From the NCBI GenBank assembly GCA_000092065.1, contig CP000593.1: DNA of 64,000 nucleotides; one strand, written 5' to 3'. Under the pieces are notes generated by a model, which worked only from the letters and a program-made list of their open reading frames with translations, ran no database searches and was not told the origin of the DNA. Below are positions 18,894-61,656 of the stretch, one piece after another (within the stretch, counting starts at the first letter, position 1; each line of letters starts with the position of its first letter). Made by a program: the position numbers and the translations under genes. Source of the stretch: Ostreococcus lucimarinus. Its lineage: Eukaryota.

Positions 18894-21800
18894 TCACGGC
18901 GACATCGGAGTGTGCGATGGGACACCGGACCTCGTCGAGCGGAGTTGCTTCCTTTCTCGGATCACTTTCGCGCAACCAGGGTTCCCACTGATGTTAGCGA
19001 CATCCTCGGCTGATCTTCCGTCTTTATCCAACAAGTTATCTTCAATCCCAGCGTCGAATAAAATCCTCAAGATGGTCGGCATTCCCAGCCTCGCCGCGAC
19101 GTGGAGCGCCGTGCTCCCTTGATAGTCTTGGCTTGACAAATTCACCCCGGCGACGATCAAAAGTTTTATTCTCTGCACTTGATCCTGTGAGATTGCGGAG
19201 TGAAGCACGGTTTGGTCGTCAGGGGAGTGATAGAGACCGCCTGCGGTGACAAGAATCTTCACCAATGGAAGACTTCCTACCGAGACGGCGCGCGATAGCG
19301 GCGAATACCCAGCCTTGCTCATGGCATTGGGATCTGCGCCCCACTTGAGGAGTAGCTTCACGACGTTATTCTGCTTGTTTTCGACAGCTACCATGAGGAG
19401 TGTGCGTCCAGCACTATCTGTGAGATGCGCATTCCGTGGCTCATCCGCAAGCGCCATGTCGAGCGCCGTCGTATCGCCCGTCACCGCCGCGACGTTGAGC
19501 TCGTGCAATTCACTTTCATACAGATCAGTAGACTTTTGGTCGAGCGCTTGCACAAAGTTGGTGTAAAGTTCGAAACCATCTTCCGCGCGGGGTCCCATCG
19601 CACTCAGCTCAAGCAAATACTTCTCTTTCAACGTACGCAAAATTTGTTTGACATCTCGAGGAAAACGTGCGAGGACGTTGTCGAGCTTGCTCGAGGAGAC
19701 GACTAAAACTTTGCACGTAGACGTCACGATGCTAGTGTGGAAGCAAGTTCGACGACAAAGCACGGCTGCGATGTTTAACCATTCACCGGGCAAGATCGTG
19801 TTAATCTTGTTACTCAGCGTTGGTTCGCGCACGTATTTTTCAGATACGATGTCCACCTTGCCGAGGCACACGTAATACATCGCCGTCGCGTCCAAGCCCT
19901 TGGACGTGAGCAGCGTTCCGGGATGATAGTACTCCACTGTTATACACTCCAAAAAGTATTGAATAAATACCGCCGACGCATTGGAGAATATCCCGCATCG
20001 ATTAATGTAGTGTTGATAGATTGCGTGTCTCAGCTCGGATTGAATCGTCGGCGGACAAAAATTCAGCACCGCTTCGTCGTCTCGACAACGCATATCGTAC
20101 TCGAGCTGCATATGTGCGTTGATCTTCTCTCTAACGGCTCTTGGAATATCGTTCCGTCGCATGAAACGTTGAAGGGACGCGATGTGATCGCGAAAGTCCA
20201 TGATTGTCGAATCGTCCTTGGTGACGATTTGCGTGACGTTACCTAAAATATACGCCGTGACGCCCATGTTCAAAATCATGATAATCATGGAAAACGCTCG
20301 CTCGAGGTTACTCACGGGAGATATGTCGCCGTACCCCACGGTGGTGAGCGTTACGGTCGCCCAGTACAGTGAAGTGGTGTATTTGTCGCTAAACGTACGG
20401 CTAGGAAGATCCGGATCGTACGCGTACACCCAAGTGTTTTCATCAAACTTTTGCCAACGAGCGAGGTAGTACAAAAAGCATGCACTCCAATGACTCGCCA
20501 ACGCGATCAACAGTGCAAATTTGAGCGCTACGAACCCCAAGTACGGCAGATTAGGGTTGCCTTCGAGCTCGCTCATCATGCGTCGGATGCGATACAATCG
20601 AAGCAGGCGAAGCATGCCCAACGCAGCCAGTACTCTCGCCGCCACCGTGCCTGGAGTGGTGGCACCGGCAAACATGAGATCAATCGGTAGCGACGCGAGC
20701 AAGTCAATGACGAACCATCCTCCAAGATATTTCATCGCAATCGCGTGCTTGTCCCAAATCAATTTGCCATACTTCTCAATTGGACGATAAAAGTTGATTG
20801 CGATGTCGGCTATGAAGATGATGTCGAAACAAATCTCCATGACTTCGTTCCAAGCTAGGCGTGCCGAGCGATGCTCGCCCTTGAATGCTAAAACCGCCGG
20901 TTCCGTGAAAGCGACGATTAGAATAAATATGTTCACCGTCCGCGTCCACGCGCGCGCGTACGCACTCGCGGGATGACACAGTAGACTCCTAAAACCGTAC
21001 GTGTCATTTTCATCCAATCGCTTGCTCCCGAACGTGTCTACCCGGCGGACTTTTTCCGTCATCCGCTTGACGTAAGTCGCAGACGGAACTAACATACGGG
21101 AGATCATACTCGGCTTTTTGCGCTCGTTCGTCTGCTCGTTCGTCTGCTCGTCGTCTTCCGCTTTCGCCGACACTGCCTTCTTCGACCACGGTAGTTTAAG
21201 CCTTTTCTTCGAATCTTTCTCCGAGTCACTCTCCAAGAACCACGAATTCCTCCTTTGCAAACCTCTGTCTTCGTCCTCGTCGTCCCACGTGCCCAACTCC
21301 GCCGCCGTCGAAGACGTCGGCTTTCTTTCCGTGCGCTCACCGAACGACGATAACGACCCCGAAGAAGTCTCCGCGGTCCCGCCCGGCGCGTCCGCGCTCT
21401 CGCCCTCCGCCCGCGCGCGCGTCGTCGTTCTCTCGTCGTCGTCTCCCTCGTCCTCGTCCCGACTCGACAGCGCGGGATTCTTCGCGCGTTCCTCCACCCC
21501 GCGTCGATCGTCCTCGCTCGGCCCTCGCCGCCGCGACGCGCTCGCCTCGTCGCGCATCTTCGTCGATTCACAATTCACGAATCGCGTTCGGCGCTCGTTC
21601 GTCCGCGCTCGGCGCTCGCCGTCGCGCGACGCGCGCGCGCGCGTCGCGTCGTCGCCGCGCGGTCCGCGATCCCGGGTCTCGTCGTCGTCGTCGTCGTCGC
21701 GCGCGACGGTCGACCTCTCGACGCGCGCGAGAGTGGCGGATGGCGACGCGCGGCGCGGGACGGCACTTCGCGCCGCGCGTCGCGCGCGCGATGAGCGCGC

Positions 21801-21914
21801 CGAGCGAGAGCTATAACTGGTGCGTCGCGCGGACGGCGCGCGGACGGCGCGCGGACGGCGCGCGAGGTCGTCGCGCGGCGCGGTGGGCGCGAACGCGTTC
21901 GGAATGTGGGACAC
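18894..21914 (-). CDS. Plant Shaker-type (AKT1-like) voltage-gated K+ channel: 6TM + pore + cNMP-binding + ankyrin repeats; start uncertain (an ATG at about 21557 is plausible)
   Basis: Selectivity filter TTVGYGDISPV, a positively charged S4 (RLLRLYRIRRM), a cNBD-like region, and C-terminal ankyrin repeats (GRTLLMVAVENKQNNVVKLLLKWGADPN...). The N-terminus is low-complexity. Confidence 0.85.
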   Translation of the reverse strand: MSHIPNAFAPTAPRDDLARRPRAVRAPSARRTSYSSRSARSSRARRAARSAVPRRASPSATLARVERSTVARDDDDDDETRDRGPRGDDATRARASRDGERRARTNERRTRFVNCESTKMRDEASASRRRGPSEDDRRGVEERAKNPALSSRDEDEGDDDERTTTRARAEGESADAPGGTAETSSGSLSSFGERTERKPTSSTAAELGTWDDEDEDRGLQRRNSWFLESDSEKDSKKRLKLPWSKKAVSAKAEDDEQTNEQTNERKKPSMISRMLVPSATYVKRMTEKVRRVDTFGSKRLDENDTYGFRSLLCHPASAYARAWTRTVNIFILIVAFTEPAVLAFKGEHRSARLAWNEVMEICFDIIFIADIAINFYRPIEKYGKLIWDKHAIAMKYLGGWFVIDLLASLPIDLMFAGATTPGTVAARVLAALGMLRLLRLYRIRRMMSELEGNPNLPYLGFVALKFALLIALASHWSACFLYYLARWQKFDENTWVYAYDPDLPSRTFSDKYTTSLYWATVTLTTVGYGDISPVSNLERAFSMIIMILNMGVTAYILGNVTQIVTKDDSTIMDFRDHIASLQRFMRRNDIPRAVREKINAHMQLEYDMRCRDDEAVLNFCPPTIQSELRHAIYQHYINRCGIFSNASAVFIQYFLECITVEYYHPGTLLTSKGLDATAMYYVCLGKVDIVSEKYVREPTLSNKINTILPGEWLNIAAVLCRRTCFHTSIVTSTCKVLVVSSSKLDNVLARFPRDVKQILRTLKEKYLLELSAMGPRAEDGFELYTNFVQALDQKSTDLYESELHELNVAAVTGDTTALDMALADEPRNAHLTDSAGRTLLMVAVENKQNNVVKLLLKWGADPNAMSKAGYSPLSRAVSVGSLPLVKILVTAGGLYHSPDDQTVLHSAISQDQVQRIKLLIVAGVNLSSQDYQGSTALHVAARLGMPTILRILFDAGIEDNLLDKDGRSAEDVANISGNPGCAKVIRERKQLRSTRSGVPSHTPMSP

Positions 21915-38674: not shown

Positions 38675-41410
38675 TCACCGGGAAAGCGCCTCTGAGCGCG
38701 GCGGTGGCGAAAGCGATTGTCGCCGAGGTCTAGACGCTCGAGCTACTACTCTCGCCTCGGCTAAGCCTGTCTCCATGTTAGATACCGTCAGATTCAGGAG
38801 TGTCTCGAGCTGAGCAGTGACTTCGCTGAGTCGCTCGTTCGTTTCCGCCAACGCAGCTGTTTGCTTTGCCTGTGAAGATGTTATTTTACGATCGAGGGGC
38901 ACGAGGCGATTGGTGAGTTCGTCTACGCGGGTTTGCAACCGTTGAAGAGGATTCTCTGTGGATGTAGTATCCCACCCAGCCGCCGCAGCGGTGATCACGG
39001 GCGCTCGTGCGCTTGTCACGGGCGTCTGCGGCGGTGCTCCGTCTGTCGACGCCTTGTTAGCTCCCTTGCGCGGCGCCGTCATCGCCTTGCCCGTCGCCGC
39101 TTGTAGCGCTGTCGCCATCAAACTTGGCGGTCCAGAAGATTCATTTGTGACTACGTCTTCGATGTTCCCGTGATCGAGCAAAGAATTCAATTTCCGATGC
39201 ATCTCGGTCAGGGAGTACGCCAGGCGCCAATGAAACACGTCCACGGCGCGAGCCGTGTAACTCATCGGATCTCTCTCGCGTAATACTTTGTGGAAAATTC
39301 CTTGAACACCACGCTCAACGAGGAGTCGGTGGAGTGACACCCTATGAATCATGCCTCTGAAACGTTTCTGAATGACAACTGCCGCCTTCGTCTTCTGCTC
39401 GAGGATTTTCGGATCGTCCAAACCTTCTCCGTCGTCTCCGTAAATTATTCGCAACTTTTGTAAATAAAACGCAGGACGTGCGCTGACTTCGCGTGATAAA
39501 TCTGCGTCTAAGCCATACTTCTTCAAAGCGGTGTATGCTTTGGTATACGCGATTATTTCGCCTCTAAAAATAATCTTGATACCTTTGAGACGGAAGAACT
39601 TTTTCGTCGCGGGGAATGGCGCGAGCGACTCGTGAAAATCTTCGCGTTCGAGGGTGTAGATGTTCGCGTACGTCAACGCCTGTGCGCCGTAGAGCAGCGT
39701 ATCGGATGAGTACAACGCCTCCTCTGCGATAGTTTTCCCAGACATTTTTATCAATCCATCGACTTGAACGACACCACGGCGAATGAGGAAAATGGTTGAC
39801 ACTGCATCACCGGGTCTGAACAACGTCTCCTCTGGCGGAAACGTGTGCTCGACGACACGAGTCGACAAGTGAATGACCAGTGGCTCAGGGCAGTGTTTGA
39901 AAAAGTCGATATTACGTATCCACGTATTCATGCGCATAGTGCACTCAGATCGCAATGCCGGCGACATTTTGTCGAGCAATCTTCTGTACACGTCGGCGTC
40001 GGCGCCATCGAGTTGATACTTGAAATACTCTCGTAAGCGAACGCGCAAATCCTGGGGAAAACCGTGATCAATTAGGAATCCATTCAAGTCCCGCATCACG
40101 CCTTGGAACTTGTTCACCTTTTCGTTCCTCGTGGCGATGACGTTCGACACAGCCCCCACGATGTAACCGTACTCAAACGCGCCGATGAGCATGGCCATGA
40201 TGACGTACACTCGCTCTCCAGTCGTTACTGGAACGATGTCTCCGTAACCGATGGTGGAGATGGTCATCGTGGACCAGTATAGCGCCGCAAGATACAGCCT
40301 CAACGAGCCGACGATCTCTCGCGGCTCACCCCCGTCGGGACCGATGACCAAATCTCCGAACTCTGTGGATCGCGTCCAAGAGTACTTCGTCCCTTCCAAA
40401 TCTTCAACCAAGCCGAATCCACACGCGAGCCAATGCGCAAACATGATTGCCGTCAAGCCAAACTTCATGAGCTCTAATAATGAGTAATCGATGGTGTAAA
40501 CCAATTCCAGCCGCTTGTAAATTCGGTTCACTCGTAAAATCCGCACGAGTTTGACGAGACGCAGAAGACGCAACGTCCTCAGAATACTGAGCTGCGCCAA
40601 CGCGCTCGAGCCGACGCCCAAATACATGGCGTCGAACGGAATCGCCGACAAAAAGTCTATGACAAACCACTTTTTGAGATACGTTCGGGCGACGTACGCC
40701 TGATTGTAAACCAAGTGCCCAGTGCGGTGATGAGGCGTGGCGATGAAAAAGTTCAACACGAGGTCGGTGACAAAGCAAGCCGTCACGAACTGGTTGATGT
40801 AAAACAACGCGTTGAAACTCGGGGTATAGAAACCGACTTCCATCGGAGTCACGATGGCGGTGTAACACAACAAAGCCATCATCACCGCCTCCCACTTTTG
40901 CAGAACGGGCTTTTGCGGCGACAACACCGCACGACTCTTCTTGTATCGAGCGCTCTGTTTCTTTCGAATCCGCAAAGTCTGCTGGCGATTCTCGCTCTTC
41001 TTTTTGCTCGTAGACTTTGAACCTTTCTCCGAAGACGAGCTAAAAATACTGCTGCTTACGGATCCGGTCTTCGCGTCGAGCGTCAAGCACGCCGCCGCCT
41101 CCGCCCGCATCAAATCCAACGCCGTCAGCGCGTGCGCGTGTCCCGCGCCCCGATCACTATCTCGCAAGCTCTGTCGTCCGTGTCGCCATCGCGAATACGC
41201 CTCATTCGCGTTCTCTGACGCAGATCCTTCATCGGTGTCGCTCGGCGAGCGGCGCCCGTTCCCCTCGCGTCCCCGTCCGTTCGCCGTCCGCCACGCCGCG
41301 TCCGCGTCCGCGTCCGCGTCGCCCATCGATCGTCCGGAGCGCATCACCGCGTCCATCGCTTCGAAGCCGTCGGCGTCGTCGTCGTCGTCGCGCGCGTCGC
41401 GTCGGTCCAT
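38675..41410 (-). CDS. Voltage-gated K+ channel with a C-terminal cNMP-binding-homology domain and coiled-coil (plant Shaker/EAG-like)
   Basis: Pore TISTIGYGDIVPVTTGERV, an S4 region LRTLRLLRLVKLVRILRVNRIYKRL, and a cNBD-like beta-roll (LFRPGDAVSTIFLIRRGVVQV). Confidence 0.8.
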   Translation of the reverse strand: MDRRDARDDDDDADGFEAMDAVMRSGRSMGDADADADAAWRTANGRGREGNGRRSPSDTDEGSASENANEAYSRWRHGRQSLRDSDRGAGHAHALTALDLMRAEAAACLTLDAKTGSVSSSIFSSSSEKGSKSTSKKKSENRQQTLRIRKKQSARYKKSRAVLSPQKPVLQKWEAVMMALLCYTAIVTPMEVGFYTPSFNALFYINQFVTACFVTDLVLNFFIATPHHRTGHLVYNQAYVARTYLKKWFVIDFLSAIPFDAMYLGVGSSALAQLSILRTLRLLRLVKLVRILRVNRIYKRLELVYTIDYSLLELMKFGLTAIMFAHWLACGFGLVEDLEGTKYSWTRSTEFGDLVIGPDGGEPREIVGSLRLYLAALYWSTMTISTIGYGDIVPVTTGERVYVIMAMLIGAFEYGYIVGAVSNVIATRNEKVNKFQGVMRDLNGFLIDHGFPQDLRVRLREYFKYQLDGADADVYRRLLDKMSPALRSECTMRMNTWIRNIDFFKHCPEPLVIHLSTRVVEHTFPPEETLFRPGDAVSTIFLIRRGVVQVDGLIKMSGKTIAEEALYSSDTLLYGAQALTYANIYTLEREDFHESLAPFPATKKFFRLKGIKIIFRGEIIAYTKAYTALKKYGLDADLSREVSARPAFYLQKLRIIYGDDGEGLDDPKILEQKTKAAVVIQKRFRGMIHRVSLHRLLVERGVQGIFHKVLRERDPMSYTARAVDVFHWRLAYSLTEMHRKLNSLLDHGNIEDVVTNESSGPPSLMATALQAATGKAMTAPRKGANKASTDGAPPQTPVTSARAPVITAAAAGWDTTSTENPLQRLQTRVDELTNRLVPLDRKITSSQAKQTAALAETNERLSEVTAQLETLLNLTVSNMETGLAEARVVARASRPRRQSLSPPPRSEALSR

Positions 41411-41693: not shown

Positions 41694-43797
41694 CTATCCA
41701 CGCTTTGCGCCGCAAAAGGCGCAAAATTTCGCCGCGGGCTTGTCGAAGCCGACGCCGCAGGAGATACAAAACTTTGCGCCGCGAGACGCGCCGGCGGTGG
41801 CGCGTCCGATGCCGGGCGCGAGCGTCTCGCAGTCGGCGCCGAGAGGAGTCTGATCGAGGAATTCGGGCTCTGGGATGCCTCGGGTGTCGCAAACGCGACA
41901 GGCGAATAAGGAACCGGCATCCATGCGACCGGGCTCGGCGCGCGTGGTGACAAAGAGTGTGTCGAGTTCGGGGCCGCCGAGCGTGACGGAGGTGGGCGCC
42001 TTGACGGGGAGCTCGACGACGAGGTCGACGGCGCCTTGCGGGGTGATGCGAATGACTTGACCGGCGCCGGAAATCGCAGCCCACAAGTTACCGTCTTCGT
42101 CGCACTGCGCGCCATCGGGTCCGCCGCTCATCGAGCTCGGGAGCTCGTAGAGAAGGCGACGATTGGACGGTCCGACGCGAGAGTCGTAGTCGAACTGGTA
42201 AATTTTCCGCGTCGGTGTATCGCAGAAAAACATCGTCGTTCCCGATCTCGAGAAGCAAATGCAGTTGCTGCACCTGAATTTGTAGTCCAGAATTTCTTCC
42301 AACTCGCCTCCGTTTCCGGGCAGGCGCCATAATCCGCCGATGGGCGCCGCGTCAACGCGGTGGGCGTTGTTGTACGAACCGATGACAAAGGAGCCGGCTC
42401 GGTCGACTCGCCCGTCGTTCGGGCGCGTGTTCAATCCAGGTTCGAACTCGCTCAAGAGCTTCAACTTCTTCGTCGACGGGTCGAATGCGTGGAGTCCAGA
42501 CTCTAAACCGAGGAGCAAGGTGCCGTTAGACCGAAGCGCGACGCAGCCGAGCGTCTCTCCGAAGTTGTTTCGTGTGGGCGCCGACTTCAAGTCCCACGAA
42601 AACAACGTACCGCTCGGTGCGTCGACCCAGTAAAGGGTCTGACGTTCTTGCGACCATATCGGAGACTCGCCGAGTTGCATGCCGCAAGGAACGACTTCTT
42701 CGGCCCAGAGCTTTTGCGGTCCTACGGGGGATTCGTCAAAGTTGAAGATTCTGCCAAACTGCTCGGCGTTGAGCGAGGCCCCGCCGACGAGGCAACCATC
42801 GACGTCCGGCGCCTGCATGAGCTCATCCACCGTTTCTGGCTTCACGCTACCACCGTACTGAATTTGAATTTTCGCCGCCACGGATTCGCCGTAATTCGTT
42901 CGGAACCATTGGCGAATGCCCGCGTGAACTGACTGGGCGATCGCCGGCGTCGCCGTTAATCCCGTGCCGATGGCCCACACGGGCTCGTACGCGATGATAA
43001 CCTTGGACATTTCATCCGCTTCTACACCGCTGAGCGCCGCGCTGAGTTGCCTGTTGCAGACCTTTTTCGCCTCACCTCGTTCGTACTCTTCCTTCGTTTC
43101 GCCGATGCACAGTACCGCGGTCATGCCGCAGTCGAGCGTCTTTCGAGTCTTGAGTCGCGTCATCTCATCCGTCTCCCCGAAAAGTTCTCGGCGTTCAGAG
43201 TGCCCGATGAGCACGTGCGTGCACCCCACGCTCTTCGCCATTTCCGCGCTCATCTCCCCCGTGAACGCACCCGAGGCTTCGAAGTAAATATTCTGAGCCC
43301 CCACGGCGACGCCGCTTCCCTCCAACTACGTTTAGGATAACGTTAACGTTCGCGTCAGTCCATCGTCCGAGTTCGCGCGCGCGCCCGCGCTTCGACTCAT
43401 CCCGCGCGAGTCCGCGTAACTATGACTATGAATTTCAAAAGCAGCAGCCCCGGTAGAGGACCGGCTTCAATTCTCAACAATGTGTAAAGTCTCTTCATCC
43501 TCGCTCGATTCGGATAGAATCGCGTTCCTTCGTCGCGTCGCGCGTTCGCTTCGTTCGTACCGTTCTCGCCACCTCAGCCGCAAACGGCGCCGGCGGACAC
43601 ACAAAAACCTCTGTTTTACTCTTATTCGTCCCGATTCCACCGTCTCGCGCCGCCGCGCCGACCAACGCCGCCAACGTCCTCGCCTCGTCCAGCGTCTTCG
43701 GGTTGAGCTTCCAATTCCCCGCCATGACCGCGTTTCTCTTCCCTCGCCCGCTCTCATCGCGCGCGCCGACCTCCGCGCGCACGCTCGCCATCGCCAT
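41694..43797 (-). CDS. TPI: Triose-phosphate isomerase fused to an SMP-30/gluconolactonase/LRE-like (SGL) beta-propeller plus a C-terminal zinc ribbon, two exons: complement(join(41694..43325,43561..43797))
   Basis: Exon 1 gives the short presequence MAMASVRAEVGARDESGRGKRNAV followed by MAGNWKLNPK...EVFVCPPAPFAAEVART. Exon 2 begins LEGSGVAVGAQNIYFEASGAFTGE, aligning with human TPI ...[27 protein letters not shown]. TIM catalytic blocks are present: VLIGHSERR, AYEPVWAIGTG, YGGSV, GCLVGGASL. The same ORF then continues without a stop into an SGL domain (VVPCGMQLGESPIWSQERQTLYWVDAPSG...RPNDGRVDRAGSF...GGPDGAQCDEDGNLWAA...TSVTLGGPELDTLFVTT), which aligns with regucalcin. It ends with CISCG...CAFCG. 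The start could lie further upstream, up to about 44010, if a longer transit peptide is used. Confidence 0.75.
43326..43560 (-). other. Spliceosomal intron of the TPI gene (235 nt, phase 0): donor GTACGA, branch-like GGACTGACG, acceptor AACGTAG
   Basis: The stop codon separating the two TIM ORF pieces is removed, and the TIM alignment (ART|LEGSGVAVGAQN) is restored. Confidence 0.75.
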
Positions 43798-44075
43798 GGA
43801 CCTTTCGAGCGCATCGATCGCCTCCGCGCGCTCCCCCGGCGCTCTCAGCGCGTCATCTTTCGTCGCCGCCGGCGATTCTCGGCGGCGGTTGAATCGATCG
43901 AACACGCCCGCGCGCGTCGTCGCGCGTCGACCCCGTCGCGCCGCGCGCGTCGTCGCCGCGCTCGCGCCCGCGCTTCGCCCGCGCATCGCGCTCTGCCGCG
44001 CGCCGAGCATCGCGACGTCGCGCGCGCGCGTCGTCGTGTGTCGAGCGCGGTCGCCAGTGCGCGACGCGACGCGCG
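43798..44075. promoter_or_regulatory. Short divergent promoter region between the TPI-fusion gene (minus) and the ARC3-like gene (plus)
   Basis: Head-to-head starts within 280 bp or less. Confidence 0.3.
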
Positions 44076-46136
44076 ATGCGCGCGGCGCGCGCGCGGACCG
44101 GCGCGATCGGCGCGCGCGCGACGCGGCGCGCGTCGTCGACGCGCGCGCGTCGCGACGCGGCGCGCATCGGCGCGTCCGCGGCGTCGAAATCATCGTCGCC
44201 GTCGTCCGAGAGGGACGACATCGGCGCGGACGGCGCCGGCGTCGCCGTCGTCGGCGTCGGCGCGCGCGGGTGCGCGCTCGTCGACGCGCTCGTCGACGCC
44301 AGAGCGCTGCCGAGGGCGGAGATGTGGGCGATGCACGCGGACGAGGACGCGCTCGAGCGCTCGCGCGCGGCGAACCGGTGGCGGTTGCCGCCGGCGAACG
44401 TCGAGGCGACGACGACGGCGATCGAGGGCAACGCGGCGAGCGCGGCGAGAGCGGTGATGGCGATGGGAGCGCCGAGGGTGATGGTGGTCGTGTGCGCGGG
44501 AGGGGAGGCGGTGGAGAGCGCGACGGCGTTTACGCGATGGGCGACGCGGGAGAAGAACGCGCGAGCGAAGAAGAAACGGTTTTTTGGATTCAAGGGAGCG
44601 AATCGCGCGCCGGAGGGTGAGATCATGATCGCGGGGGTGATCGAACCGTTCACGTTCGAGGGAAGGCGGAAGCAACGCGGGTGCGATGAGTTTTTGAGAG
44701 CGTGCGCGGAGCCGGGGGCGTGCGACGCGGCGCTGACGGTGTCGCAGTCCGAGCTGTTGAAGAACGGAGAGGATGGAATGTCCGTGCAAGACGCGACGTC
44801 GATCGCGGATGCGTCTTTGTTGTACGCCGTGCTGAGCGCGGTGGAATCGCTCCGATCGAGCTGCTGGAGCTCGGGCGGGGAACGCGACGCGAGCGACGTC
44901 GACGCGTGGACGCCTCAAATCGAAAAGGGTGGGCGTCTTCGGGCGAAGGTGAACGATGTCATGTCGTCTCACGGTGGTGGGTGCGGCGTCGCGCACGTAG
45001 GTCGCGGTGTCGCCGATGTGCCGACGTACGGAAGCGCGGACGAGGCGATCGCCGCCGCCGCGCGCGCCGCCATCGCGACGGCGGCGCGGCAGAGTCCTTT
45101 TCTGGCTCCCGGGCGCTTCGACACCGCTCGATTGGTCATCTGCACCGTGAAGCACGGCAACGCGTTTGGACCGCTCGCGCGCGCGACGATTTCTCAAGCG
45201 CTGAGTGAACTCACGAGTGCGGAACAATTCATTTCAATCGCGAATCCAGACAAGAGAGGCTCGACCGAAGTGGAAGTGACCCTGCTCACCGTCACCGACG
45301 CCGAAACGGCGGCGGCACCGGCGCCGGAATCAAAGACCGTTCCCGTCGTGTCCGAGGACCCACTGCATAAGTCGAATCCGATGCTGTTCGTGCCTGGATA
45401 CGTTGCCGGCGAAGAGCAGACAAAGCGTAAGACGACGAAGCTTTCGCGGGACGATTTGAAAAATTTCGGTAACGACGACACGCAAGCGATTGTCGCCACG
45501 GAAGAGCGCGCCGTAATTTTCACCTCCGATCAACTCGCGACGACTGCCGTCATCGCACCGGAAGTAACCGGCGCTGAGCGCTCTTCACGCTCCGCTGCGC
45601 TTCCTCTCCCGCGCGACTTCGCCACCAAGCAAGTCACCGTGCGCGTCAGCGAACCGCGGATGGACGAGTCTGGTAACGTCATCGGCTACAAGACGTTGCA
45701 AGGCGAGGAACCGGACAAAAAGTCTTCACCGGTCAAAACTCTGTTTGGGTGGCGACCCGACAAACCCAAAAAGCAAGAAAAATCTGAACTCTCCAGGCGC
45801 GCGCTCGGCATGCTCGAACAAGACGGGAAAAGAAGAGGAGCCGCCGTTCGAATGGAATTCGCCAACACCTCCGTCTACGAAGGCGAATGGGCGGACGGAA
45901 AACGCGAGGGTGTCGGTCGTCAAGTATTTGCGGACGGTGATTGGTACGAGGGGAATTGGTTTGCAGATCTCCCGGACGGGAAAGGGAAGCTTAGCTTCAA
46001 GACGGGAGAAAACAGCTTCTTTGAAGGCATGTTCAACGCGGGCGTGCCGGATGGCCCGGGTAAGCTCGTGCGCACATCGGGCGACGAGCTCGTCGGCATG
46101 TGGCGCGACGGTGCGTACGTGGACGAGGAGAATTAG
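44076..46136 (+). CDS. ARC3: ARC3-like chloroplast division protein (FtsZ-like GTPase-fold N-domain + C-terminal MORN repeats)
   Basis: N-terminal transit-peptide-like region. An FtsZ-like block VAVVGVGARGCALVDALV...MWAMHADEDAL...VMVVVCAGGEAV. C-terminal MORN repeats (YEGEWADGKREGVGRQVFADGDWYEGNWFADLPDGKGKLSF...FEGMFNAGVPDGPGKLV). FtsZ+MORN is the defining ARC3 architecture. Confidence 0.6.
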   Translation: MRAARARTGAIGARATRRASSTRARRDAARIGASAASKSSSPSSERDDIGADGAGVAVVGVGARGCALVDALVDARALPRAEMWAMHADEDALERSRAANRWRLPPANVEATTTAIEGNAASAARAVMAMGAPRVMVVVCAGGEAVESATAFTRWATREKNARAKKKRFFGFKGANRAPEGEIMIAGVIEPFTFEGRRKQRGCDEFLRACAEPGACDAALTVSQSELLKNGEDGMSVQDATSIADASLLYAVLSAVESLRSSCWSSGGERDASDVDAWTPQIEKGGRLRAKVNDVMSSHGGGCGVAHVGRGVADVPTYGSADEAIAAAARAAIATAARQSPFLAPGRFDTARLVICTVKHGNAFGPLARATISQALSELTSAEQFISIANPDKRGSTEVEVTLLTVTDAETAAAPAPESKTVPVVSEDPLHKSNPMLFVPGYVAGEEQTKRKTTKLSRDDLKNFGNDDTQAIVATEERAVIFTSDQLATTAVIAPEVTGAERSSRSAALPLPRDFATKQVTVRVSEPRMDESGNVIGYKTLQGEEPDKKSSPVKTLFGWRPDKPKKQEKSELSRRALGMLEQDGKRRGAAVRMEFANTSVYEGEWADGKREGVGRQVFADGDWYEGNWFADLPDGKGKLSFKTGENSFFEGMFNAGVPDGPGKLVRTSGDELVGMWRDGAYVDEEN

Positions 46137-46181: not shown

Positions 46182-47393
46182 TCAAAACTTTTCAAGTCGG
46201 CGATCGGCGCACACGTCTGTGAGCGTGCGCAGAACGTTGGGGCGAGCCAAGATGACGCTCCCGACATCGGACTTGGAGAACTCCAAAACCCAAACGTTTC
46301 CATCGCCTTCGTACGGCGCCATGACCGTCGCTCGACGCTCTTCGCCAGTCATGAGCGCGATTTCGCCGAAGAAATCGCCCGCGAGCATGGTGGCCACTTG
46401 CAACGGTTCGCCTCGATTCTTCGCCGCGTCCGTCACGACGACGTGCATTTTCCCTAATACGACGACAAACATCGAGGTACCGCGCTCGCCTTGACGCACC
46501 ACGCGCGCACCACGTCTCACGAAGCAACATTTCGAGCCGTCGAGCATGTCGCCGATGGACAAATCGTCGAGCGTGCCGAACAGCTTCGGCGCCGTCGCGC
46601 GCAAATGCGACAACCACTTCTGCCGCGACCACTTCCGCGGATCCTCCGCCTTACCCATAGACGACGAAGGCGACAGCGTCTTCTTCTTTTCAAACTTCGA
46701 AACCGTATTCGCCGCCGTCGACGCTTCCACCTCCGGCCCGACGCGTCCCAACCGCGGCAGCGACGCCGCGAATTCATTCTCCTCGTTCGCTATTTCACCG
46801 TAATTCACCGTCGCCGCGGGCGCGCGCGCGTGCGTCTGCTGTCGTCGCGCCGTCGGCGATTCCGACCGCGACGGCGGCGCGCTCAAACGTTTCTCTCTCG
46901 CTCGTCGCCCCTCGTCGTCGTCCGCCGCCGCCTCCTCGCGCGTCTCGCGCGTCCCCTTCCCGACCACCGCCGTCGTCCCCGCGCTCGCGCCCCGCGCCAA
47001 TCGCACCGTCAGCGCCTCGATCTTCGCGCTCTGGTCGTCGATCGCCGTCGTCACGTCGTTCACCACCGCGTCGTAAATCTTCGGCACGCTTCGCGAAATC
47101 CAAGCCAACTTCCCATTCATCCTGATCTGCGTCTCCTGCATCGCCGTCAGCGTCTCCAACACCGCGCGCTGCGCGTCCATCGACGTCTCGCGTCGCCTCG
47201 CGTCGTCGTCGTCGTCGCGGCGCGTCGTCGTCGTCGCGCGCGCGCGCGCGTCGCCGTCGAACGCGGCGCCGTGGATCGCCGTCTTCGTCGCCGCCTCGCG
47301 CGCGCGATCGCGCACGGCGCGACGACGATCGAGGGCGAGGGCGTCGTCGCCGTCGAGGGCGTCGTCGAGGGCGATCGCGGCGTCGGCGCGCAT
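46182..47393 (-). CDS. Coiled-coil protein with a C-terminal cyclic-nucleotide-binding domain
   Basis: cNBD beta-roll: VVRQGERGTSMFVVVLGKMHVVV...LAGDFFGEIALMTGEERRATVMA. Confidence 0.55.
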   Translation of the reverse strand: MRADAAIALDDALDGDDALALDRRRAVRDRAREAATKTAIHGAAFDGDARARATTTTRRDDDDDARRRETSMDAQRAVLETLTAMQETQIRMNGKLAWISRSVPKIYDAVVNDVTTAIDDQSAKIEALTVRLARGASAGTTAVVGKGTRETREEAAADDDEGRRAREKRLSAPPSRSESPTARRQQTHARAPAATVNYGEIANEENEFAASLPRLGRVGPEVEASTAANTVSKFEKKKTLSPSSSMGKAEDPRKWSRQKWLSHLRATAPKLFGTLDDLSIGDMLDGSKCCFVRRGARVVRQGERGTSMFVVVLGKMHVVVTDAAKNRGEPLQVATMLAGDFFGEIALMTGEERRATVMAPYEGDGNVWVLEFSKSDVGSVILARPNVLRTLTDVCADRRLEKF

Positions 47394-56635: not shown

Positions 56636-57109
56636 TCAACCCGGCGGTCGAATCGAGCGATCCAACTTGTCCACGTGCGCGCGCCCCGCCTCGGTGACGC
56701 TAAACGTAAAATTCCCTCTCCCTCGTCGCTTCCCGCCGCCCGAGTCGCGCTCGCCCTCTCCGGGCGGGCTCGTCGACACGCGATCGATCGCCTTCATCTT
56801 ATTCAGCAATCCCTTCATGTGACGCATCGATCGCGTTCCGACGCCGAGCGCCGACGCGCGCTCGAACAGCGCCCTCGTCGTCATCGCCCCCTCATCGCGC
56901 AGGACGCGCAGGAGCCCCGCCATGGGCCCTCTCCCCGCCGCGTAACGATCGATCGGCGCGCGGTCGTCCGACGCGCTCGCCGCGCTGAGGCGCGACGAGG
57001 CGACGGCGAAGCCGCGAGAGGTCTGCGGCGCGGCGACGATTTGAAGCGACGAAGACGCGCGCGCGAACGACGCGCGCGCCAGAGCGACGAGCGAAGACGT
57101 CGAGGGCAT
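56636..57109 (-). CDS. Hypothetical small protein with a mitochondrial-presequence-like N-terminus
   Basis: A 157-aa ORF whose N-terminus is R/S/A-rich and amphipathic. No family was recognised. Confidence 0.3.
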   Translation of the reverse strand: MPSTSSLVALARASFARASSSLQIVAAPQTSRGFAVASSRLSAASASDDRAPIDRYAAGRGPMAGLLRVLRDEGAMTTRALFERASALGVGTRSMRHMKGLLNKMKAIDRVSTSPPGEGERDSGGGKRRGRGNFTFSVTEAGRAHVDKLDRSIRPPG

Positions 57110-57350
57110 CGCGCTCGACCGCTCGGGCGAAGGCGGCGGGAAGCGCGCGCGCGCGAGTGCGGAGGGCCGAGCGCGCGCGCGAGGTTTTGGTCGACGAAGT
57201 CGGGACGCGACGACGACGCGCGACGGTCGTCGCGCGAGGCGAGGCGAGGCGCGGTGCGCGGTGCCGAGACGATGAATTACATAAAAAACACCGAGGTTTC
57301 GTCCGCCCGAAGCGCGCGCGATCGCGACGCGCGCGTGGCGAATGATTCGG

Positions 57351-58166
57351 TCACGCGTTGACGGCGTCGGAGCTCGCGCGAAACTTTTCGGCTCGCCGAC
57401 GCTTCGCGTCTTTGAAACTCTTCGTCGCGCGCGACTGCTCGCCGCGCGCCGCGTACTCTCGACTCCACGCGAACATGTCGTCTCGCACGCCCTCGAACCC
57501 GCCCTCGAGCGCGCTCGCGTTGACGAAGACGATAAAGTCCACGCGCGCCGGCCACGCGTCCTTGTTCGTGCGAAACGCGTGCCGAATCCGTCGCTTTATC
57601 AGATTTCGATCCACCGCGCGCTTCACCTGTTTCTTCGGCACGACGATCCCGATTCGCGTGCACGTCGCCGGTTCGTGATTCGCGTTATCCACCGCGCGAA
57701 TTCGCAGATGCGCACCGTTATACGTCCGCCCCTCTCGCTTGACGCGATCGAAATCCGCGTTCGTCTTCAACCGCTCGCGCGGTCTGAACACCTCCCCCTC
57801 GATCGACTCCGTCCGCGCCGCGCGCGCCGGTTTTCGCCCGCTCATCTCTCCCCAGTTCCCGCCCTTACCGCCCGCGCGCTCCTCCGGTCGTCCGTCCGCG
57901 TCGTTCGCCGTCGACGCCGCCGCCGCGTCGTCGTCGCCCGCCGCGTCGCTCGACGCCGCCCGCGTCGTCGTCGTCGTCGTCCCTCGCCCCGTCCGCGCCG
58001 CGCGCTCGGCGTCGCTCGCCGACGCGCGCGTCGAGAGATCCGCGCGCGTCGTCGCCGGCGCGCGCCACGCGTCGCGCGCGCGCGTCGCGCCGTCGCGCGT
58101 CGTCGCGCGTCGTCCCGCCGCCGCCGCCGTCGTCGTCGCCAGCGCGCGCGCCAGCGCGCGGCGCAT
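57351..58166 (-). CDS. rnpA: Bacterial-type RNase P protein component (RnpA) with a long organelle-targeting N-terminal extension
   Basis: RERLKTNADFDRVKREGRTYNGAHLRIRAV...RIGIVVPKKQVKRAVDRNLIKRRIRHAFR...VDFIVFV matches the RnpA fold and its RNR motif (KxxAVxRNxIKRRxR). The chosen start is the ATG at 58166 (MRRALARALATTTAAAAGRR); the ORF continues upstream to 58502. Confidence 0.75.
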   Translation of the reverse strand: MRRALARALATTTAAAAGRRATTRDGATRARDAWRAPATTRADLSTRASASDAERAARTGRGTTTTTTRAASSDAAGDDDAAAASTANDADGRPEERAGGKGGNWGEMSGRKPARAARTESIEGEVFRPRERLKTNADFDRVKREGRTYNGAHLRIRAVDNANHEPATCTRIGIVVPKKQVKRAVDRNLIKRRIRHAFRTNKDAWPARVDFIVFVNASALEGGFEGVRDDMFAWSREYAARGEQSRATKSFKDAKRRRAEKFRASSDAVNA

Positions 58167-58365
58167 CGCGCGCGCCGGGGCGACGCGGTGCGTCGTCGCG
58201 CGCGCGCGCGGCGGTCGCGGCGCTCCGACGGCGCGCGCGAGCGACGCCGCGCGCGTCGGCATGCGTCGGCGAATGCGGAATCGCGAATCGAACGTCGCAT
58301 TGCGCGCCTCGCGACGCGACGACGCGCGGCGCGCCGGCGTGCGACGCGCGACGTGAACGCGCGGG

Positions 58366-61300
58366 ATGTCGCGCGCGCGCGAGACCGGCGTCTCGGCGCG
58401 CGCGCGAGACGAGGACGACGAAAACGACGGTCGAGCGGATTCGAATGCGAGCGCGCATTCGGCGAGTCGAAGCGACGCGACGCGCGCGCGCGCGCCGAGC
58501 ACGCCGCGAGGGTACGATCACGATGGGTCGTTTCACGACGTCGGCACGCCGGCGACGGCGGCGACGGCGGGAGGCGAGAGAGGGACGTCGAACTCGGTGG
58601 CGCGGCGAATCGCGGCGCTCGAGCGAAGCGGCGACGACGCGAACGCGAACGCGCGTCGCGCGTCGTCGAGTGATGCCTCACGCGGCGATGGATGGCGATC
58701 GGGATCGTCGTCGGTGAAGTCGGCGGCGGCGCTGGAGCGCGTGGCGGAGGATGTGCGGAGCGTGCGGATGAAATTGTTCGCGGCGTCGACGAGCGCGGCG
58801 AGAGCGACGGACGAATACGGCGACGCGTTGAGGGAAGCGGGAGAGGGGTTGGATTGGCGACCGGTGGTGACGCGGGCGGTGGGAGTGATTGAGGACGCGG
58901 ATGTGGACGCGCGGGCGCGCGCGGCGCGCGTCGCTAAACGGGTGCGGGAGGAGTTGGACGCGCGCGAGAGAGAGCGAGGCGCGAGGTTGGAGGCGTTGGC
59001 GGAGCGGCGGAGCGAAGCAGCGGCGGCGTCGAACAGGGCGTCCAAGGCCTCGGAAAAGAAGAATCTTCCGGTGTTTTTAACGGGTGTCGCGTCGTCTTCG
59101 AGCAAACACGCGAATTTTGTTCGTGGTGGGAAGGCGTTGGACGAGGGCGCGGCCAAGGCGACGAAACGTTTGGCGTTTGAGATTTTGCGAGGCGCCGCGG
59201 GACGTTCGCGAGCGTTGCGAAGGGCGGCGAACGATATGGGAATGATTCGTCGCGCGCCGATTTTAAAGCGTGCGTTCGACGCGCTTCGCGCGCACGCCGT
59301 GATATGCGCGCCTCGAACTCGAGCGATGCGCGAAGCGTGCGAAACGTTCGTCGTCGTGACCGATCGTAGGATGCGACGGTCGGCGTTCAAGTCGTGGCGC
59401 GAGGGTGTGCGAGAACAAACGTTAGGTAAGACGTGTGCGGCGATTCACAACGTTCGGATCGCGCAAGCGGCGTTACATCATTGGGAGCTTTTTGCAGCAC
59501 GGGCGTTTTGGAAACGAAAGGCGAACGAGTTGGCGCACTCGTACGCCACCGGAAGATTACGCACCCTCGCGTTTTGCGGGTGGTTGCTGCACGCGCGTCG
59601 CGTTAAGGAACGCCGTATCGCCGTGCGTGCGCGAATGTTTGGCATGTCCGTACCAGAGGCGCAGCGTGCGATCCATGAAAAGGTTAAATACACTGCGCAC
59701 GACGCTCACTTGATGATGAAAAGTGAGTTGAAGTACCTGTTCGAGAAGCGCTGCTCGGAAAGCGCGCTACGATCGCAAGTCTCGTCATCGCTAAAACTCA
59801 TTCGCACGCTCGAGAACATGCGGAGATTTACTGCGGACGGAGAAGATGTGGCGTGGGCGTCGAGTGATTCAGCCATGTTTCGGGGGATCGGCGCCGCTAA
59901 GCGGCATTTGCATGTGGGATTTTCGACACGAGGACGAACGGACTCGCCGCGGCGGAAAACGTTGTCGCTCAACAGAGATGACGTCGCGGCGTCGCGAACG
60001 GCGGCAGCGATCGAAAAGGTCGCGACGACGATTGATTTCATTCCGGACAACTCGATGAACGTCGATGCGCTGAGTGCAGACGCATACGAGCTCTCGCAAG
60101 AGCATCAACGAGCGCTGACAAGCGCGCGTGACGCGACTCAAAAGTGCGTCGCCGCGCGAAAGGCGGCGCACGACACGAGTCTCAGGGCGAGTCGACTCGT
60201 CGCAAACGCCGATTCGCGGGCGAACGCGGCGGTTCAGGGCGCGCAGGATGCGATGAATGAGTCGATCAAGGCTGAGTTCCTTGCCATCGAAGCGGAAGAG
60301 TCCGCCAATCTCGCCGAGCGCCGCGCAGAAGAGCTCTCGGAATCCGGCGCGGGCGACGAAAAAGTGATCGCGCACGCGCTTCAGCGGGCCGCCGAAGCGG
60401 CGGCTTGCGCGGTCAATCTATCTTCCGCGCACGTAGCCGCCGCTCGAGTTGCAGAACGCGCAATCGATATCGCTGAAGAGCATAAAGAGGCGGCGAGAAT
60501 GTTGAAGGCGCAAGCGGAGGAAGACGTCGAGAAAGCACAGACGCGCGTGCTCGAAGCGGAAGCCGTCGTCATGGCGACGGCGAAACTGGAGCGAGAACTC
60601 AACGCAAAGGCGGTGAACGCGATGAAACGTTTGCAGCGCGCGACGGGTGATTCCGTCGTTTTCCACGACGGAAGTTTATTCGATCGTGATTCCAACGAAA
60701 ACGCGGTGTTTTCTCCCACGAAGGCGCGAAGCGCTGAGGAGAAGAAAATTATGCGACGACGCGTGACCTGGGACTCGTTTGGCGAAGGAATCGACGACGA
60801 CGACGATGATATCGTTGAGAGCATGCAAAACATATCTCTTGCGCCGGGAAAGTGGTATACGCTCGCGGAGTGTGCGACGCAAGCGTACGCCAAGAGGCTC
60901 GCACGCAAAGTACTCGCCGGTTTTGCGAAAAACATCGCGTGGCGTCGGCAACAGCGCGACGCCGCGCAGTTGTCGTTCATCACGAACATCTTCACCTCTT
61001 GGGCGAACGTAGCGCACATCAACCAGACGCGTCGCAGGCTCGTGGAGAGCGTCGTGGATGAGGTCGTCAGCGAAGATCGCGAGCGACGGCTGCGCGCATA
61101 CGTTTCGTGCCTGCAGAAGCACGCCAAGTGGCGCAAAGCGCGCTGCGAGGAGCTGAAAATTAGCCTCCGACGCGTCGTCGCGCCGACGATCACACGGCCC
61201 GCGTTCGATCACTGGCGAAAGAAAGTGGCAAATATTTACCTCGTCCGGCGAGTCGTGAATCGCGCCATCGTCGCATGGAGAGAGCGCATCGCCAAACCGT

Positions 61301-61656
61301 CGCACTCAAACGCGTTTTACGCGATGTACGATGCCTTGCACGCTTGGCGCCGCGTCGCCGAAGAGCGTCGCCTTCGCCGCCACCGCTCACGAACGGCGAT
61401 GGAGTATCATCGTGTCACGCTCACTTTGAAGGCTTTGAACTCTTGGAGAGCTTTCACCGAGGCGCGTGCCGAGCGCGTTCGCGAGCGTCGCATCGCTCTC
61501 GAGCGATCTCGCCGTCGTCGCCGTCTCGCCGTGGAATCCTATTACCGCGCGCTCGCCTCGCGAGCGCTCTTACTCTGGCGCGCCGTCGCCGTCGCCAATC
61601 GACAATCTAGCACCCCACATCGCGCGCGACGCGCGATCGCGCGCGCTTCGCATTAG
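58366..61656 (+). CDS. Sfi1-repeat-like protein (candidate centrin-binding centrosome/basal-body protein)
   Basis: Many repeats ending in W-K/R with about 23-33 aa spacing (AFKSWREGV, ALHHWELFAARAFWKRK, AFCGWLLHAR, AFDHWRKKV, IVAWRERI, LHAWRRV, LNSWRAF, LLLWRAV) resemble the Sfi1 consensus AX7LLX3F/LX2WK/R. A long coiled-coil middle region. The ATG at 58366 is confirmed. Confidence 0.5.
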   Translation: MSRARETGVSARARDEDDENDGRADSNASAHSASRSDATRARAPSTPRGYDHDGSFHDVGTPATAATAGGERGTSNSVARRIAALERSGDDANANARRASSSDASRGDGWRSGSSSVKSAAALERVAEDVRSVRMKLFAASTSAARATDEYGDALREAGEGLDWRPVVTRAVGVIEDADVDARARAARVAKRVREELDARERERGARLEALAERRSEAAAASNRASKASEKKNLPVFLTGVASSSSKHANFVRGGKALDEGAAKATKRLAFEILRGAAGRSRALRRAANDMGMIRRAPILKRAFDALRAHAVICAPRTRAMREACETFVVVTDRRMRRSAFKSWREGVREQTLGKTCAAIHNVRIAQAALHHWELFAARAFWKRKANELAHSYATGRLRTLAFCGWLLHARRVKERRIAVRARMFGMSVPEAQRAIHEKVKYTAHDAHLMMKSELKYLFEKRCSESALRSQVSSSLKLIRTLENMRRFTADGEDVAWASSDSAMFRGIGAAKRHLHVGFSTRGRTDSPRRKTLSLNRDDVAASRTAAAIEKVATTIDFIPDNSMNVDALSADAYELSQEHQRALTSARDATQKCVAARKAAHDTSLRASRLVANADSRANAAVQGAQDAMNESIKAEFLAIEAEESANLAERRAEELSESGAGDEKVIAHALQRAAEAAACAVNLSSAHVAAARVAERAIDIAEEHKEAARMLKAQAEEDVEKAQTRVLEAEAVVMATAKLERELNAKAVNAMKRLQRATGDSVVFHDGSLFDRDSNENAVFSPTKARSAEEKKIMRRRVTWDSFGEGIDDDDDDIVESMQNISLAPGKWYTLAECATQAYAKRLARKVLAGFAKNIAWRRQQRDAAQLSFITNIFTSWANVAHINQTRRRLVESVVDEVVSEDRERRLRAYVSCLQKHAKWRKARCEELKISLRRVVAPTITRPAFDHWRKKVANIYLVRRVVNRAIVAWRERIAKPSHSNAFYAMYDALHAWRRVAEERRLRRHRSRTAMEYHRVTLTLKALNSWRAFTEARAERVRERRIALERSRRRRRLAVESYYRALASRALLLWRAVAVANRQSSTPHRARRAIARASH

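Follow-up and report, generated by a model that had tools for sequence, protein, structure and literature searches.

A 64,000-nt stretch of contig CP000593.1 of Ostreococcus lucimarinus (assembly GCA_000092065.1), referred to here as the window, harbors on its minus strand a gene for a bacterial-type RNase P protein (RnpA, also called RPP), and we put the probability that this is a functional nuclear gene of the RnpA family at about 97%. It is very probably the O. lucimarinus orthologue of the nuclear bacterial-type RPP/RnpA described in O. tauri and its close relatives. This second assignment is supported indirectly, by the finding of a single extension-bearing family in conserved synteny.

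The RnpA domain and its conservation

A first-pass annotation, made from the letters of the window, had read the open reading frame (ORF) as a 271-residue protein with an RnpA signature in its C-terminal part, and profile searches with PF00825 and TIGR00188 both place it above their cut-offs. Pfam PF00825 (Ribonuclease_P) matches residues 127-232 of the 271-residue model at E=1.4e-27 and 96.3 bits, against a gathering cut-off of 22.3, and covers profile positions 1-102 of 109; the NCBIfam equivalog model TIGR00188 (rnpA) gives 61 bits, its cut-off being 38.35. None of the lineage-specific PRK models comes near its own cut-off, as expected of a divergent member. A sequence search of the PDB returned bacterial RNase P proteins only, with E-values from 7e-8 to 7e-6 (B. 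subtilis 4JG4 and 1A6F, T. maritima 1NZ0 and 3Q1Q, S. aureus, and E. coli). From here on, residues are numbered from an upstream Met that yields a protein of 303 residues (next section), and AlphaFold2 was run on this model with a 32-sequence alignment of homologues. The predicted order of elements is α-β-β-β-α-β-α (helix 168-177, strands 179-182, 186-192 and 203-207, helix 216-232, strand 241-247, helix 250-302), and the block-mean predicted local distance difference test score (pLDDT) lies mostly at 83-93 in the core and falls to 69 in one loop. The predicted fold agrees with the profile searches: all 16 matches with E<1e-3 in a Foldseek search of the PDB are bacterial RnpA, and the next match has E>=0.1. 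The 14 crystal and cryo-electron microscopy structures among them have target-normalised template-modelling (TM) scores of 0.75-0.85, root-mean-square deviations of 1.5-2.2 Å and 27-30% identity, and the two nuclear magnetic resonance models have target-normalised TM scores of 0.66-0.69. The domain is also very basic, with an isoelectric point of about 11. The core and its diagnostic motif are located as follows.

57468..57788, minus strand: RnpA core domain (alpha1, beta1-3, alpha2, beta4 and the start of alpha3), residues 159-265, delimited by PF00825, TIGR00188, AlphaFold and Foldseek
57570..57617, minus strand: RNR-motif region AVDRNLIKRRIRHAFR at the N-terminus of helix alpha2, residues 216-231 (184-199 in the 271-residue model)

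Residue equivalences were taken from a HMMER alignment to B. subtilis RnpA. The residues R60, N61, K64, R65 and R68 of the B. subtilis protein correspond to R219, N220, K223, R224 and R227, all of which are invariant in 11 algal orthologues. The RNR motif named by the first-pass annotation is thus present, with the basic positions equivalent to R60, K64, R65 and R68 kept, but its third triplet residue is not Arg: since the equivalent of R62 is Leu221, likewise invariant in the 11 orthologues, the triplet reads R-N-L and not R-N-R. This substitution lies within the variation of the family and is not peculiar to algae, because Leu occupies the position in 50 of the 138 motif matches of the top bacterial-size relatives from an exhaustive profile search (Arg in 53, Lys in 20). 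In B. subtilis, F16, F20 and Y34 are what we take to be the central-cleft aromatics that contact the 5' leader of pre-tRNA; the equivalent of F16 is F171, which is invariant in the orthologues.

A first homologue search returned 33 matches, all from marine-metagenome or read assemblies and all with an N-terminal extension, and no bacterial homologue was found in it at E<1e-3. The extension-bearing homologues form a single family with 39-82% overall identity (54-83% in the core domain). By the Nei-Gojobori method, the ratio of non-synonymous to synonymous substitution rates (dN/dS) over core residues 159-265 is 0.18 against the sister lineage (L007), 0.13 against a second lineage (L009), and about 0.07 against two others (L010 and L011); hence, the core is under strong purifying selection. 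Synteny is kept in at least six marine-metagenome algal lineages, in which the GC content of the locus ranges from 49% to 65%. The syntenic set comprises a divergently transcribed gene of about 1100 residues, a small orphan (157 residues here), a Myb gene, a transporter-like gene, a DUF3727 gene and a MYND+CS gene. The conserved synteny and the low core dN/dS together indicate that rnpA is functional and vertically inherited within the group. A GC-rich (~67%) group has other, flagellum-related neighbours, with a KIF9 kinesin in both of its members and a weak Rootletin match in one.

The nuclear location proposed in the first-pass annotation holds as well. Three window proteins are identical to proteins of O. 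lucimarinus CCE9901 (XP_001421052, XP_001421056 and XP_001421059), on a 528,469-bp contig, and two further ones fall into 90% clusters with proteins of the same strain. The neighbours are those of a eukaryotic nucleus, namely SPT6, Spo11/Top6A, TAF6, Mlo, Kelch, ankyrin and cyclic-nucleotide-gated channel proteins, a DHHC palmitoyltransferase and Myb. The same identical proteins confirm the assignment of the window to the Mamiellophyceae. A Rfam scan and a tRNA scan of the window gave no match, as expected for nuclear DNA. We also considered four other readings of the ORF, as contamination from bacteria, as a non-functional gene transferred very recently, as a pseudogene, and as a product of chance in DNA rich in GC. 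The RnpA family is otherwise bacterial, and GC-rich DNA does yield many long spurious ORFs, among them a 443-residue one antisense to rnpA (57342-58673). However, the ORF is flanked by eukaryotic genes on an O. lucimarinus contig of chromosome scale, its GC content matches that of the rest of the window, it has the same neighbours in at least six lineages, its core is constrained, its Pfam E-value is far from what chance gives, and its closest bacterial relatives are only 32-46% identical to it. Context, synteny, GC content, selection, Pfam score and distance from bacteria together exclude these explanations, and we regard the residual chance of any of them as negligible.

Gene model and start codon

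The ORF of the first-pass annotation runs on the minus strand from an ATG at 58166-58164 (ATG2) to a TGA at 57353-57351, giving 271 residues. Its stop end and its frame stand, but its start probably lies 96 nt further upstream: the ORF remains open beyond 58166 and reaches an in-frame ATG at 58262 (ATG1), 32 codons away, which gives a protein of 303 residues. The segments concerned are listed below.

57351..58262, minus strand: whole coding sequence of nuclear rnpA/RPP in the model preferred here, 303 residues plus TGA, a continuous, intron-less ORF
57351..58166, minus strand: 271-residue model from the internal Met33, a possible alternative initiation site; Met33 is kept in three lineages
58167..58262, minus strand: the 32 codons from ATG1 to ATG2 (MPTRAASLARAVGAPRPPRARATTHRVAPARA), compared at the DNA level with the sister lineage
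58263..58365, no strand: 103-bp head-to-head spacer between ATG1 of rnpA and the ATG of a divergent gene of 1096 residues

We prefer the 303-residue model because of four observations. First-ATG position is one of them: no in-frame ATG of the ORF precedes ATG1 in the window, nor its equivalents in L007 and L009, which stand at a similar spacing from the second Met (Met1-Met33 in the window, Met1-Met34 in the two others), and in L007 a stop codon lies 12 codons upstream of the ATG1 equivalent. Another is the pattern of change between the window and the sister lineage, in which the 96 nt from ATG1 to ATG2 show a single indel, of 3 nt, and two synonymous changes at third positions (GTC GCC CCG versus GTC GCG CCC), whereas the 119 alignment columns upstream of ATG1 contain four indels of 1 nt each. 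Furthermore, the N-terminus M(R)PT..RA recurs in three homologues (P0004, P0006 and P0013), although the lineages are only about 59% identical overall. Lastly, the exact 303-residue protein has been called on 13 marine-metagenome contigs, Tara Oceans assemblies among them, while the 271-residue model is confined in the database to short contigs starting somewhere between ATG1 and ATG2. In the protein collections searched, neither model was found from an NCBI source, all contigs carrying them being metagenomic.

The competing model, in which translation starts from 58166 only and the 32 upstream codons belong to the 5' untranslated region, is the less probable of the two, but it has arguments of its own. 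Position -3 is a purine (G) at ATG2 and C at ATG1; the 103 bp from ATG1 to the ATG of the divergent neighbour leave little space for two promoters and untranslated regions; the most amphipathic, presequence-like segment starts at Met33 (MRRALARALA); and the whole extension is without amino-acid constraint. These arguments are met by the shared first-ATG position, by the triplet and synonymous character of the changes between the ATGs as opposed to the single-nucleotide indels upstream of them, and by an N-terminus common to lineages as distant as those above. We therefore keep ATG1 as the probable start, and note that Met33 is possibly used too, alone or in addition to Met1. Since its indels are not triplets, the spacer at 58263..58365 is non-coding, and it presumably holds a bidirectional promoter and the 5' untranslated regions of both genes.

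Lineage-specific additions and proposed role

The protein carries several segments outside the RnpA core, as listed here.

58095..58262, minus strand: acid-free segment rich in Arg, Ala, Thr and Pro, presumed organelle-targeting peptide, residues 1-56, net charge +13, first acidic residue at 57
57873..57953, minus strand: acidic low-complexity tract (SSDAAGDDDAAAASTANDADGRPEE), residues 104-130, preceded by a mixed segment
57789..57860, minus strand: conserved block GNWGE-SGR...ESIEGEV directly before the RnpA domain, residues 135-158
57351..57467, minus strand: basic C-terminal tail prolonging helix alpha3, residues 266-303 plus stop, 11 of the 38 residues being Lys or Arg

The part before the conserved block contains 31% Ala, 18% Arg and 15% Thr, compared with means of 12.5%, 9% and 5.5% in seven other window proteins, so that over residues 1-134 these three amino acids are 2-3 fold more frequent than in other proteins of the window. 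The helical hydrophobic moment is highest at residues 29-41 (ARAMRRALARAL), around Met33, and AlphaFold predicts a weak helix at 30-47 and otherwise disorder within residues 1-56. Lack of acidic residues, richness in Arg, Ala and Thr, poor conservation and absence from bacterial homologues are all features of targeting peptides, and on this composition an organelle-targeting role of the extension is plausible. As the dN/dS of residues 1-134 is about 1.0 (Nei-Gojobori), however, the case for targeting is one of composition. The first-pass annotation was right to call the extension rich in Arg, Ala and Thr; the likeness to transit peptides that it noted applies to the first ~56 residues, and import itself we infer. 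D/E-rich tracts are found at the equivalent place in the aligned orthologues, although their sequence is not conserved. The GNWGE block is present in 9 of 11 aligned proteins, a low-GC (49%) lineage (P0027) and a GC-rich one (P0031) being without the GNWGE box, while ESI.G.VF is found in all 11; the block has no counterpart in aligned bacterial RnpA and an intermediate dN/dS of 0.3-0.56. The C-terminal helix (250-302) is about 50 residues long in the AlphaFold model, with block-mean pLDDT of 82-93 up to residue 300.

Genes of this class were already on record for the genus, as the first-pass annotation had stated. According to the papers that cite it (PMC4264200, PMC3858429 and PMC4919922), Lai et al. 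(2011, Mol Genet Genomics 286:359) described a nuclear homologue of the bacterial RPP in O. tauri, and PMC4264200 speaks of RPP in Ostreococcus and in prasinophytes close to it. The O. tauri RPP activates bacterial RNase P RNA (RPR) in vitro (PMC4264200) and complements an E. coli rnpA mutant (PMC4264200; PMC4919922). Both O. tauri organelles, plastid and mitochondrion, encode rnpB (PMC3790967; PMC4919922), as does the plastid of Micromonas RCC299 (PMC4264200; PMC3790967; PMC4919922), and organellar rnpB genes are expressed (PMC4264200). The O. tauri and O. lucimarinus proteins are alike in genus, nuclear coding, RnpA domain and extra N-terminal sequence; however, the biochemistry is that of the O. 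tauri protein. With the bacterial proteins (1A6F of B. subtilis, 1NZ0 and 3Q1Q of T. maritima, 7UO0 of E. coli) the algal one shares the fold, the very basic character, the equivalents of R60, N61, K64, R65 and R68, and that of F16. It differs from them in lying in a nuclear eukaryotic context instead of a bacterial gene neighbourhood, in having about 158 extra N-terminal residues (the targeting-like part, the acidic tract and the GNWGE block), and in about 38 extra C-terminal residues that prolong alpha3, whereas the RnpA chains in the PDB have 112-137 residues in total. At the residue level the differences are R62 to Leu, F20 to Lys and Y34 to Arg.

Our proposal for the role of the protein is as follows. 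The acid-free, Arg/Ala/Thr-rich first ~56 residues would take the protein into the plastid, the mitochondrion or both; the mature protein would then bind the organelle-encoded RNase P RNA via the RNR helix, with the central cleft binding the pre-tRNA 5' leader, and through this binding the ribozyme would need less Mg2+ and salt, an effect that bacterial RnpA has as well. We give somewhat better than even chances to an organellar RNase P RNA being the partner in vivo. The first-pass annotation stated that such proteins pair with organelle-encoded rnpB. Its premise of an organelle-encoded rnpB holds for O. tauri, where both organelles have the gene, but pairing overstates the record: because the O. 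tauri RPP activates RNase P RNA from bacteria and fails to do so with that of its own plastid, by the account of a paper co-authored by one of Lai et al. (PMC4264200), we can only infer it. A somewhat similar situation exists in the cyanelle of Cyanophora paradoxa and in red-algal plastids, where an organelle-encoded bacterial-type RNA is presumed to need a nuclear-encoded protein, as here. However, no RnpA homologue has been found in C. paradoxa or red algae (PMC4264200), whereas in O. lucimarinus the homologue exists and its pairing with the RNA is putative.

A number of observations count against the proposed role or its premises. The O. tauri RPP gave no activity with its own plastid RNase P RNA, and its function is called 'unknown' by the co-author of Lai et al. 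(PMC4264200); the same paper describes prasinophyte plastid RPRs as inactive in vitro, and a functional PRORP in O. tauri, which is active in vitro. In view of the failed cognate reconstitution, the inactive plastid RPRs and the functional PRORP, the organellar ribonucleoprotein may not be a working tRNA-processing enzyme. In the protein itself, the central-cleft residues F20 and Y34 of B. subtilis are replaced by K175 and R189, the latter position being Arg or Lys in the orthologues. Moreover, no cyanobacterium or alpha-proteobacterium was found among the named closest bacterial relatives, although both searches are index-biased, the protein is short and there was no reference set for either group. 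One source differs on the biochemistry: the review PMC4919922 states that the O. tauri RPRs associate with RPP and cleave pre-tRNA in vitro. The two papers describe a single experiment from Lai et al. 2011 in contrary terms, and we gave more weight to the account of the co-author.

The failed reconstitution, the active PRORP and the altered cleft residues would also fit a protein that is kept for a job other than activating organellar RNase P RNA in tRNA 5' processing, for instance as a general basic RNA-binding or chaperone protein, or as an RPR partner for non-tRNA substrates, with PRORP cleaving the organellar pre-tRNA. PRORP, which has PPR repeats and an NYN nuclease domain and needs no RNA subunit, is a candidate for the same task of 5' maturation of organellar pre-tRNAs in plants and algae; it is unrelated to RnpA, and nothing in the locus resembles it. 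The additions absent from bacterial RnpA (the GNWGE block, the acidic tract and the 50-residue C-terminal helix) likewise agree with a changed function. On the other hand, the residues by which the RNR motif contacts RNase P RNA do not vary among the algal orthologues, the core has a dN/dS of 0.07-0.18, and the O. tauri RPP still activates a bacterial RPR and replaces rnpA in E. coli. In our judgement a different job is unlikely, and an organellar RNase P RNA stays our preferred partner.

A more elaborate version of the organellar role, which we regard as rather improbable, is that one nuclear rnpA serves both organellar RNase P RNAs, the twin AUGs giving differently targeted precursors. Met1 would then be used in a weak context, with C at -3, and Met33 in a better one, where it would open the amphipathic MRRALARALA helix, and the lineage-specific additions would be what degenerate organellar ribozymes need. 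If so, the need for these additions (the GNWGE-ESIEG block, the acidic tract and the 50-residue basic C-terminal helix) could explain why simple in vitro reconstitution failed.

Relatives, neighbouring genes and significance

In the exhaustive profile search 12,919 proteins passed E<1e-3, the extension-bearing algal proteins scoring 97-234 bits and proteins of bacterial size starting at about 86 bits and going down from there. The closest named bacterial RnpA is that of a Planctomycetota metagenome-assembled genome (JACQFE010000013.1, 2959-3366, our locus L015), with 44% identity over 98 residues, the motif R-N-Y, and the segments FRPQERLKSDRDFDRV and AVQRNYVKRRIREAFRRNK. A pattern-based scan of genome contigs, biased by its two peptide patterns, named mostly Actinomyces and the same Planctomycetota genome, while a word-indexed profile search named Cyclobacteriaceae, Ekhidna, Bacteroidales and Calditerrivibrio; neither the pattern scan nor the profile searches revealed a clear bacterial sister group. 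None of the named relatives points to cyanobacteria or alpha-proteobacteria, so that we do not take an organellar ancestry as shown, and the unusually good likeness of the Planctomycetota protein to the algal core hints that the algal rnpA need not derive from a plastid or mitochondrial ancestor.

Two further groups of proteins were seen in these searches. Seven divergent RnpA homologues (P0196, P0201, P0202, P0205, P0207, P0210 and P0220) score 72-129 bits against the algal profile and have N-terminal extensions of 65-150 residues; several of them contain an AVDRNL motif, and their sources are read and metagenome assemblies. Judging from these sequences, the occurrence of nuclear rnpA in algae may extend beyond Ostreococcus and its close relatives. 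Many bacterial matches of 212-223 residues (e.g. P0385, P0399, P0417 and P0432) contain PF01809, presumably the YidD family, and PF00825 in one polypeptide. The genes rnpA and yidD are neighbours in bacteria, and these proteins look like fusions of the two.

Divergently from rnpA, the window encodes on the plus strand (58366-61656) a protein of 1096 residues without a Pfam match. The head-to-head pair recurs in other lineages with a gene for 955-1214 residues in the equivalent place, and the spacer is 102 bp in the sister lineage. On the other side, 241 bp downstream of rnpA and on the same strand (56636-57109, minus), lies a gene for 157 residues with a presequence-like N-terminus, for which neither Pfam nor the PDB gave a match. 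In most syntenic lineages the equivalent position and orientation are taken by a small called gene (117-209 residues), the correspondence being positional. Further away, on the minus strand at 41694-44193, a triosephosphate isomerase gene is apparently split by an intron, with the N-terminal exon (AGNWKLNP, preceded by a transit-peptide-like leader) in the ORF 43495-44193 and the rest in the ORF 41694-43325. The latter runs in frame into an SMP-30/gluconolactonase domain (TIM E=2.7e-76, SGL E=1.6e-65), which suggests that the product is a triosephosphate isomerase-gluconolactonase fusion protein. Three genes with a cyclic-nucleotide-binding signature lie within 30 kb on the minus strand (18894-21914, 38675-41410 and 46182-47393). 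One of them encodes an ion-transport, cNMP-binding and ankyrin protein according to Pfam, and the other two are named by database sources only, as a K+ channel or CRP-like cAMP-binding protein and as a cyclic nucleotide-binding domain protein.

Around 57-59 kb there are also Arg-rich ORFs of up to 443 residues antisense to, or out of frame with, rnpA, which are by-products of CG-rich codon usage. The longest (57342-58673, plus strand) was rejected as an artefact of GC composition because selection acts in the minus-strand frame. Such spurious long ORFs are a warning for any ORF-based reading of the O. lucimarinus genome.

It is rare indeed for a eukaryotic nucleus to encode an RNase P protein of the bacterial type. 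Since this rarity was published for Ostreococcus in 2011, the locus adds no new kind of system; the gene class has been known for the genus since then, and the locus is the O. lucimarinus copy. What our analysis adds is a gene model of 303 residues starting at 58262, strong purifying selection and conserved synteny among many uncultured relatives, a map of the lineage-specific additions to the RnpA core, and the lack of an evident cyanobacterial or alpha-proteobacterial affinity among the closest named bacterial relatives. The gene bears on whether the RNase P RNAs of some algal plastids and mitochondria are working ribozymes or relics.

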